DNA of 517 bases, from assembly GCF_003334335.1 (NCBI RefSeq), contig NZ_QOWQ01000177.1, one strand, 5' to 3'. The stretch comes from Escherichia coli (GTDB lineage Bacteria; Pseudomonadota; Gammaproteobacteria; Enterobacterales; Enterobacteriaceae). The position numbers were made by a program, and so were the translations under genes. Shown piece by piece: positions 1-517 of this stretch. Position 1 is the first letter of the stretch, and each line of letters starts with the position of its first letter. Under the pieces are notes generated by a model. It ran no database searches, was not told the origin of the DNA, and saw only the letters and a list, made by a program, of their open reading frames with translations.

Positions 1-93
1 ATGCTGGTTGGCTCCCGCCGTATATCCCAGGACATCAGTACCCGTGATGAAGGCGGGGGCGGAAAGGTCGTGGTTATCGGGCGGCAGGGGTAA
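1..93 (+). CDS. I: Tail (tip) assembly protein I, C-terminal end; 5'-truncated by the window edge
   Basis: Frame +1 from position 1 reads MLVGSRRISQDISTRDEGGGGKVVVIGRQG followed by TAA at 91-93. This closely resembles the C-terminus of phage lambda gpI as I recall it (...GSRVVSQEISTADEGDGGQVVVIGR). Its position directly upstream of J matches lambdoid tail-gene order. The ATG at 1-3 is most likely an internal Met codon, not the start. GC content is about 63% by hand count, typical of the coding flanks. Confidence 0.8.
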   Translation: MLVGSRRISQDISTRDEGGGGKVVVIGRQG

Positions 94-139
94 AAAGAAT
101 AAAAAAATCCCGCAGTGATCGCGGACAGGAACTGCGGGA
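94..139 (-). terminator. Predicted intrinsic (rho-independent) terminator for a leftward transcript
   Basis: Perfect 9-bp inverted repeat: TCCCGCAGT at 108-116 pairs with ACTGCGGGA at 131-139, with a 14-nt loop (117-130). On the minus strand the stem is followed immediately by UUUUUUUAUUCUUUUU (complement of the A-run at 92-107). On the + strand no U-tract follows the stem (GAGAGTTACG), so it is oriented for the minus strand. The loop is larger than in typical terminators, which lowers confidence. Confidence 0.5.
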
Positions 140-198
140 GAGTTACGAAGATTAAGTGTAAGGAATTATTCTTATGTCACGACAAAAAAAATTAACGC
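100..198 (-). ncRNA. Candidate small non-coding RNA of about 100 nt (promoter-to-terminator unit without an ORF)
   Basis: The interval between the predicted start (about 198) and the end of the terminator U-tract (about 100) has no ATG-initiated ORF on the minus strand; the only coding-like string is GTG ACA TAA. The predicted transcript is 5'-GCGUUAAUUUUUUUUGUCGUGACAUAAGAAUAAUUCCUUACACUUAAUCUUCGUAACUC-[hairpin]-UUUUUUUAUUCUUUU. It has a U-rich 5' region and a terminator hairpin with U-tail, the usual layout of Hfq-type small RNAs. The boundaries are predictions. Confidence 0.3.
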
Positions 199-204
199 AG
201 CGAA

Positions 205-232
205 ATTATACGCGCCACAGTCAGTTTGTGAA
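205..232 (-). promoter_or_regulatory. Predicted sigma70 promoter on the minus strand (leftward)
   Basis: Read on the minus strand: -35 TTCACA (complement of 227-232, 5/6 match to TTGACA), a 16-bp spacer, then -10 TATAAT (complement of 205-210, 6/6). The predicted start is a G about 7 nt downstream, near + coordinate 198. It lies in the AT-rich spacer and fires away from J toward the terminator at 94-139. Confidence 0.4.
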
Positions 233-256
233 AATGTGAAGATATTCAGAATTTTT
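231..256. promoter_or_regulatory. CRP-like palindromic site (TGTGA-N6-TCAGA) with AT-rich flanks
   Basis: AAAATGTGAagatatTCAGAATTTTT compared with the CRP consensus AAATGTGAtctagaTCACATTT: the core at 235-250 matches 9 of 10 half-site positions, and the AAA/TTT flanks are present. The centre (about 242.5) lies roughly 44 bp upstream of the predicted minus-strand start, overlapping or just upstream of the -35. A second TGTGA at 227-231 gives a tandem TGTGAAAATGTGAA. Confidence 0.3.
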
Positions 257-272
257 ATTCAGTCATGATACA

Positions 273-300
273 GGCATCCTCCGGGGTGCCTGTTGTTTTT
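273..300 (+). terminator. Terminator-like GC hairpin with U-rich tail on the + strand, 36 nt upstream of the J start
   Basis: GGCATCC at 273-279 pairs with GGGTGCC at 284-290, giving 7 bp including one G-U pair, with a 4-nt loop TCCG. It is followed by TGTTGTTTTT at 291-300. An AU-rich stretch (AAUUUUUAUU, 250-259) precedes the hairpin. The A-run would precede the stem on the minus strand, so the orientation is +. It could be an attenuator or stability element of the late transcript, or the 3' end of a + strand small RNA. Confidence 0.35.
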
Positions 301-322
301 GTGAGTGAACAATTATCACGGT

Positions 323-335: not shown

Positions 336-517
336 ATGGGCAAAGGCGGCGGCAGGGCGCACACACCGCGCGAGGCGAAGGATAATCTCAAATCCACGCA
401 GATGATGAGTGTGATTGATGCGATTGGTGAGGGACCGATAGAAGGTCCGGTGAAGGGACTGCAGAGTATCCTGGTGAACAAAACCCCGCTGACGGACACG
501 GACGGTAATCCCGTGAT
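336..517 (+). CDS. J: Host specificity protein J / central tail fibre (tip attachment protein J), N-terminal 60 codons; 3'-truncated by the window edge
   Basis: ATG at 336-338 opens a frame that stays open to the window end: MGKGGGRAHTPREAKDNLKSTQMMSVIDAIGEGPIEGPVKGLQSILVNKTPLTDTDGNPV. It matches the lambda gpJ N-terminus as I recall it (MGKGSSKGHTPREAKDNLKSTQLLSVIDAISEGPIEGPVDGLKSVLLNSTPVLDTEGN) at most positions. A strong Shine-Dalgarno sequence lies 5 nt upstream. GC content is about 62% by hand count. Confidence 0.9.
   Translation, partial: MGKGGGRAHTPREAKDNLKSTQMMSVIDAIGEGPIEGPVKGLQSILVNKTPLTDTDGNPV

Follow-up and report, generated by a model that had tools for sequence, protein, structure and literature searches.

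A CRP-type operator predicted at the upstream end of the PasB small RNA cassette in lambdoid prophages of Escherichia coli

The window, meaning the whole 517-nt stretch of Escherichia coli DNA that was analysed, covers the junction between the lambdoid tail genes I and J, which are separated by an AT-rich insert of 243 bp (Table 1). Gene I is annotated as 'tail tip assembly protein I' in phage PhiR5_1, which is 99.6% identical to the window, and as 'tail assembly protein' in E2348/69. At about 90% identity, the window also matches many Stx1a- and Stx2c-converting phages. The insert, that is the I-J intergenic region, was matched in 1748 of 5426 complete E. coli genomes, about one third.

Table 1. 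Features of the window. Positions refer to the window; identities are means over pairs of the 8 representative alleles.
Feature	Position	Strand	Basis or remark	Mean pairwise identity
Lambdoid tail assembly gene I, 3′ end	1..93	+	ORF 1..93; stop codon 91-93	
sRNA intrinsic terminator	101..139	-	hairpin 139..108 and U7 tail 107..101; terminator scan, fold	
PasB-family sRNA	101..198	-	predicted primary transcript from G198; equivalent of the published 83-nt PasB, 101-183	
sRNA body	141-198			67%
P2, second -10-like hexamer TAATTT	189..194	-	predicted start 182/183	
-10-to-site segment	199-231			60% (minimum 30%)
P1 -10 hexamer TATAAT	205..210	-	promoter scan; predicted start G198	
P1 -35 hexamer TTCACA	227..232	-	16-bp spacer; in some alleles only	
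CRP-type operator (predicted), 22-mer AAATGTGA-AGATAT-TCAGAATT	232..253		matrix, shuffles, invariant cores	88%
Two core pentamers	235-239, 246-250			100%
T-tract at the upstream edge of the cassette	253..258		TTTT 253-256 and T258 invariant	
Terminator-like hairpin with T-run, between sRNA cassette and J	270..303	+	terminator scan; fold z-score -4.65	
Tail tip host-specificity gene J, start, MGKGGGRAHTPREAKDNLK...	337..517	+	annotation under database matches	

An earlier note on this DNA had placed a candidate RNA on the minus strand of the insert. On sequence grounds, this RNA represents a variant of the published Hfq-dependent sRNA PasB. The PasB northern probe (AATCCCGCAGTGATCGCGGAGCT) matches positions 107-126 of the window with 20 of its 23 bases, and the PasB locus of E2348/69 (NC_011601.1, 1466261-1466343, minus strand), which lies between gpJ and the tail assembly gene, aligns throughout with the window. 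The mean column identity of this pairwise alignment is 90%. The two loci share their location between I and J, the minus strand and the same terminator, and their promoter and CRP-like block are nearly identical, whereas the 5′ half of the RNA differs and is the more divergent part. As expected of the PasB family, the RNA is encoded between the two tail genes, runs antisense to the structural operon and ends at an intrinsic terminator of its own; the published 3′ end of PasB coincides with the end of the U run in the window. The sRNA folds into a 5′ stem followed by a single-stranded stretch, the terminator and the U7 tail. Immediately 5′ of the terminator, in a single-stranded position, GAAGAT at 147-152 (AUCUUC in the RNA, 152..147) is invariant. 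This hexamer is likely the seed of the window's sRNA, and it agrees with the seed position that Zhu et al. (bioRxiv 10.64898/2026.05.13.724894) proposed for PasB.

PasB (E2348CN_0006) was found by RIL-seq as an Hfq-dependent prophage sRNA of EPEC E2348/69 (PMC8550237, Pearl Mizrahi et al. 2021). Its Hfq dependence was seen by northern blot and 37 RIL-seq interactions were recorded (PMC8550237); these data on Hfq-dependent stability and pairing concern the E2348/69 copy only. Its distribution and its embedding within the phage structural gene operon have since been described (Zhu, Shabalina and Storz 2026, bioRxiv 10.64898/2026.05.13.724894). Neither of these two papers deals with the promoter of PasB, CRP, cAMP or catabolite control, and our literature search returned no report of CRP binding at PasB. 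Other identities for the RNA were tried and discarded. No Rfam family reached its gathering score in the window, and the alignment with MicX (21 bits against a required 75, E = 0.02) brings two hairpins together by chance. The anti-sRNAs AgvB and AsxR, our initial guess, are sited at the pR′ moron site and not between I and J, and svsR of prophage NC-SV, an unrelated RNA, is encoded at the cI 3′ end. A keyword search of the supplements of Tree et al. 2014 gave no EcOnc entry linked to tail genes.

Positions 231-256, upstream of the RNA, read AAAATGTGA-AGATAT-TCAGAATTTTT. The consensus CRP site is a 22-bp two-fold symmetric sequence with TGTGA-N6-TCACA cores and A/T-rich flanks. In the window the corresponding cores are TGTGA at 235-239 and TCAGA at 246-250, centred on 242.5 within the 22-mer listed in Table 1. 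The claim of the earlier note that TGTGA-N6-TCAGA agrees with nine of the ten CRP core positions was borne out, and agreement extends to 14 of the 16 non-spacer positions. This is the sole match to TGTGA-N6-TCACA with at most one mismatch in the window, and only one of 200 dinucleotide shuffles contains any such match; when two mismatches are tolerated, 42 of the 200 shuffles contain one. The scan against shuffled background that the earlier note proposed as a check was made with an approximate matrix, symmetrised from 20 classic sites (the Stormo-Hartzell set), on which the 22-mer scores 14.1 bits and exceeds 15 of the 20 training sites scored leave-one-out. The same score was reached by 19 to 25 of 5000 dinucleotide shuffles (0.4-0.5%), whether the window, the intergenic region or the AT-rich core was shuffled. 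Moreover, the non-redundant lambdoid phage DNA around PasB loci, about 260 kb in all, contains only three unrelated 22-mers with as high a score. These figures show the CRP-like match to be real, and uncommon even by the standard of AT-rich DNA. A second TGTGA half-site, also claimed previously, is indeed present at 227-231, but it only represents this allele's -35 hexamer and lacks conservation among the other alleles. With a score of 6.7 bits and no conservation, it was rejected as part of a composite site. Use of the operator by a plus-strand promoter was considered by eye, and no acceptable -10 was seen at 292-297 (class I) or 272-277 (class II).

Two -10 elements lie downstream of the CRP-like site. 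The first, P1, is a sigma-70-type promoter (TTCACA-16-TATAAT, 232..205) with 11 of 12 consensus matches in the window's allele. Its -10 reads TATAAT, TATCAT, AATAAT, CATAAT or GATAAT among the alleles, the exception being the rare L056 with GATAAA. The -35 is less constant: in the BP-4795, CP-1639 and L344 alleles its place is taken by TTCTGT, TCCGGC or TCCGCA. These alleles retain the CRP-like site, as expected for an activator-dependent promoter. The second element, P2, has the form TAnnnT, with its T, A and final T invariant in all alleles. It lies 16 bp downstream of TATAAT and is followed by a T-rich stretch and a G. The 5′ end of the published 83-nt PasB, which was taken from RNA-seq coverage with no start-site mapping, falls on G183 of the window and thus on the start predicted from P2. 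Either transcription starts at P1 and the 5′ end reflects processing or under-coverage, or P2 provides a genuine start. If P1 is the real promoter, the P2 hexamer occupies +5 to +10 and might instead act as a sigma-70-dependent pause signal, a type of element known at lambdoid late promoters. A further motif of the minus strand, CnGTnG at 215-220 (-22 to -17 from G198), has four invariant bases (C220, G218, T217 and G215) within a spacer, between TATAAT and the operator, that has otherwise diverged strongly; the motif fits neither an extended -10 nor a sigma-54 element.

The distance between the site and the two -10 elements is fixed. In 213 of 220 contigs, TCACA of the RNA-sense strand is 24 nt from the P1 -10, despite the divergence of the intervening sequence, and 40 nt from the TAnnnT of P2. 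A start at G198, a conserved base, would place the centre of the site at -44.5, which upholds the earlier estimate of about 44 bp upstream of the predicted start. The spacing had also been called non-canonical. This holds for P1, but the problem may be partly apparent: from the published 5′ end or from P2 the site lies close to the class I position, at -59.5 from G183 (the coverage-derived end) or -60.5 by the P2 -10, that is 1-2 bp off -61.5. Busby and Ebright are said to have assigned, in 1999, lac P1 to class I with its site at -61.5 and galP1 to class II with its site at -41.5. A class I site precedes a weak core promoter. At lac P1, which has the same type of operator (TGTGA-N6-TCACA), 41 nt separate the pentamer from the -10, against 40 nt at the candidate P2. 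At galP1 this distance is 21 nt against 24 nt at P1 of the window, a difference of 3 bp that puts P1 out of phase with class II; the class II arrangement (-41.5, 21 nt from pentamer to -10) was thus not found at TATAAT in these 213 contigs. Two points of geometry therefore weigh on the operator reading: the site at -44.5 from P1 is out of phase with class II, and the class I reading depends on the coverage-derived 5′ end of PasB. A literature search for CRP sites at -44.5 returned nothing useful.

Known sRNAs under CRP control offer a comparison. Like PasB as proposed here, CyaR is a small Hfq-binding RNA with its own transcription, an upstream CRP site and higher levels without glucose; it is a core-genome gene whose crp dependence has been demonstrated, whereas PasB belongs to a mobile prophage cassette and its CRP control is proposed from sequence. 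Spot 42 likewise has an sRNA promoter with a CRP site, predicted in the case of PasB, and its gene, spf, is repressed by CRP. In the EPEC study, the "activating" condition was mid-log growth in DMEM and the "non-activating" condition was overnight static growth in LB (PMC8550237). PasB was higher in overnight LB than in DMEM, and Spot 42, which reads out CRP activity in these data, behaved in the opposite way, being about 5-fold higher in DMEM than in LB (PMC8550237). By this analogy the behaviour of PasB fits activation by CRP, with growth phase also differing between the two conditions.

The promoter of the window's allele raises the alternative that CRP does bind the site but dampens or represses a strong P1. 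Such a near-consensus promoter (11/12) needs no activator and should fire without one, which also counts against activation. Moreover, the site extends from -55 to -34 and would abut the -35, where CRP could displace the alpha C-terminal domain or sigma region 4 as at spf; the 22-mer overlaps the first base of the -35 hexamer, and the P1 -10 is found at 24 nt and not at the 21 nt of class II. We nevertheless regard repression as unlikely: a repressed PasB would be hard to reconcile with its higher level in glucose-free overnight LB, given the opposite response of Spot 42 in the same data set, and the retention of the site in alleles without a recognisable -35 suits activation better.

Whether the match behaves as an operator over evolutionary time can be read from its variation. 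From 220 contigs, three IMG/VR scans together with six GenBank phage loci yielded 72 distinct cassette sequences, which group into at least six alleles. TCTGA-N6-TCACA is present on the RNA-sense strand of every cassette copy that has a promoter. Among the 72 sequences, none of the ten core positions of the 22-mer varies, against nine of the twelve non-core positions (232, 234, 240, 241, 243, 244, 245, 251 and 252). The exact probability that nine random variable columns out of 22 would all miss the cores is 220/497420 = 4.4e-4; since the alleles are related by descent, the columns of this test are not fully independent. Fixed pentamers flanking a free spacer are the pattern predicted for a CRP operator. 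The earlier note had conceded that the match could be a coincidence in AT-rich DNA. Together with a score far above background, the invariance of the pentamers in the face of a variable spacer and variable flanks argues against this concession.

Not all of the conservation is of the kind expected from CRP. G249 is invariant although it is non-consensus for CRP, and this invariance is unexplained by pure selection for CRP affinity. The adjoining T-tract at 253-256 is invariant as well, and further along only A257 varies, in 6 of the 72 sequences. These features, together with a position that fits neither CRP class exactly, leave some room for another host or phage protein, or for a structural element such as a UP-like A-tract or bent DNA, with the resemblance to a CRP site being incidental. 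UP elements are A/T tracts at -57 to -38 (AAAWWTWTTTT for the distal and AAAAAARNR for the proximal subsite). By eye, the minus-strand sequence AAAAATTCTGA matches 7 of the 11 positions of the distal subsite, and the proximal subsite is poor. However, an A-tract or UP element does not account for invariant G236, G238, C247 and G249 in two pentamers 6 bp apart, which is the pattern of CRP, and we give this explanation little probability. Named regulators were compared by eye, through their consensus sequences. The Cra (FruR) operator is a TGAA-N4-TTCA palindrome with a central CG; TGAA-GATA-TTCA is present in the window, but the central CG is found in no allele (GATA, GAAA, GAGT, GAAT or TAAA) and the L344 allele has CTCA for TTCA. 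FNR (3 of 5 matches per half-site), the RcsB box (wrong spacing) and sigma-54 (no GC at -12) all fit worse than CRP.

The site assigned here to CRP also marks a boundary. In the variants most frequent in IMG/VR, and in several more, homology between copies stops at 256-262, and at least four unrelated sequences lie beyond. Some alleles continue the conserved block rightwards into the hairpin upstream of J, and the stretch common to all arrangements is only about 230-258, that is the operator and the short T-tract. Since homology breaks just beyond the site in at least four right-hand contexts, the site belongs to the sRNA cassette. The hairpin at 270-303 lies outside the cassette and is missing in the alternative right-hand contexts. 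It would block non-antiterminated transcription into J, or shield the sRNA promoter. Its stem, on the sense strand of the late operon, is retained in other alleles; in E2348/69 it persists with a change of G-U to G-C. The arrangement seen most often, that of the PPompW-type prophages and the commonest IMG/VR variants (L127, 510-690), has about 180 bp of different DNA after the cassette in place of the hairpin and J, with a bidirectional terminator-like hairpin (AAAACCCCGGTATCTGCTGATACCGGGGTTT) and short ORFs only.

Copy number and loss can be followed in individual contigs. One IMG/VR contig (L327, 8160-8800) carries three tandem cassettes between I and J, each with its own TGTGA-N6-TCAGA. The third has a different terminator (ATCTCCCGTAATATCGCCGGATACTGACGGGAGA) and a different RNA body, with a homologous promoter and operator, which suggests a cassette family broader than the present definition of PasB. 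Only two PasB-like copies lack the site, L142 from E. albertii and L310, and both have lost the whole promoter: the sequence upstream of TTAAC, comprising the P1 -10, the -35 and the operator, is replaced by unrelated DNA. These truncated copies are probably dead remnants. L142 was the sole relevant match of a contig scan with the terminator pattern AAAAATCCCGCAG-N4-14-CTGCGGG, which is too generic and otherwise gave unrelated terminators spread over many phyla.

Lambdoid phages often have mosaic boundaries, every copy derives from a single cassette family, and several alleles continue the conserved block into the J-proximal hairpin region, so that a chance match in AT-rich DNA, kept by recent common ancestry and by the recombination breakpoints of a mosaic region, deserves mention; it is rendered improbable by the contexts in which homology breaks directly to the right of the site, leaving only 230-258 in common, by substitutions that fall on non-core and never on core positions, and by the small fraction of shuffles that reach the matrix score.

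On balance we favour, by a modest degree of confidence, the reading that 232-253 is a genuine cAMP-CRP operator at the upstream end of the PasB cassette, probably an activating one. The cassette would be a portable unit that lies between I and J and is encoded on the strand opposite that of the late operon, in the order terminator, PasB-family sRNA, promoter and operator. At high cAMP, in the absence of glucose, a CRP dimer would occupy both pentamers and help RNA polymerase to start PasB, and the level of an Hfq-dependent prophage sRNA would thereby be coupled to the carbon status of the host. The present analysis contributes to this reading the match, its rarity, its membership of the cassette, its base-by-base conservation and the fixed distances to the -10 elements; the published work contributes the existence of the RNA, its Hfq dependence and its higher level in overnight LB than in DMEM. 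From these we infer the identity of the protein as CRP, activation as its effect and the -10 that is served (P1 or P2).

What is new here is a predicted CRP-type regulatory feature on an sRNA, PasB, that was already known. More tentatively, and with considerable doubt on our part, the I-J region of lambdoid prophages may house a portable sRNA cassette under a CRP switch, with an RNA body and a seed that can be swapped or stacked, by which temperate phages would deploy variable Hfq sRNAs. PasB is among the most widespread accessory sRNAs of pathogenic E. coli and has dozens of Hfq-mediated partners; a conserved CRP operator, if confirmed, would give it an input, namely carbon availability. The cAMP signal of the host would then be used from within a silent structural operon, adding a catabolite-controlled layer of lysogenic conversion that has not been described for PasB. 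It would also extend the few CRP-controlled sRNAs (CyaR, Spot 42 and McaS) by one that is mobile and carried on a prophage, and would show how a moron-like cassette in a silent tail operon is expressed in the lysogen.
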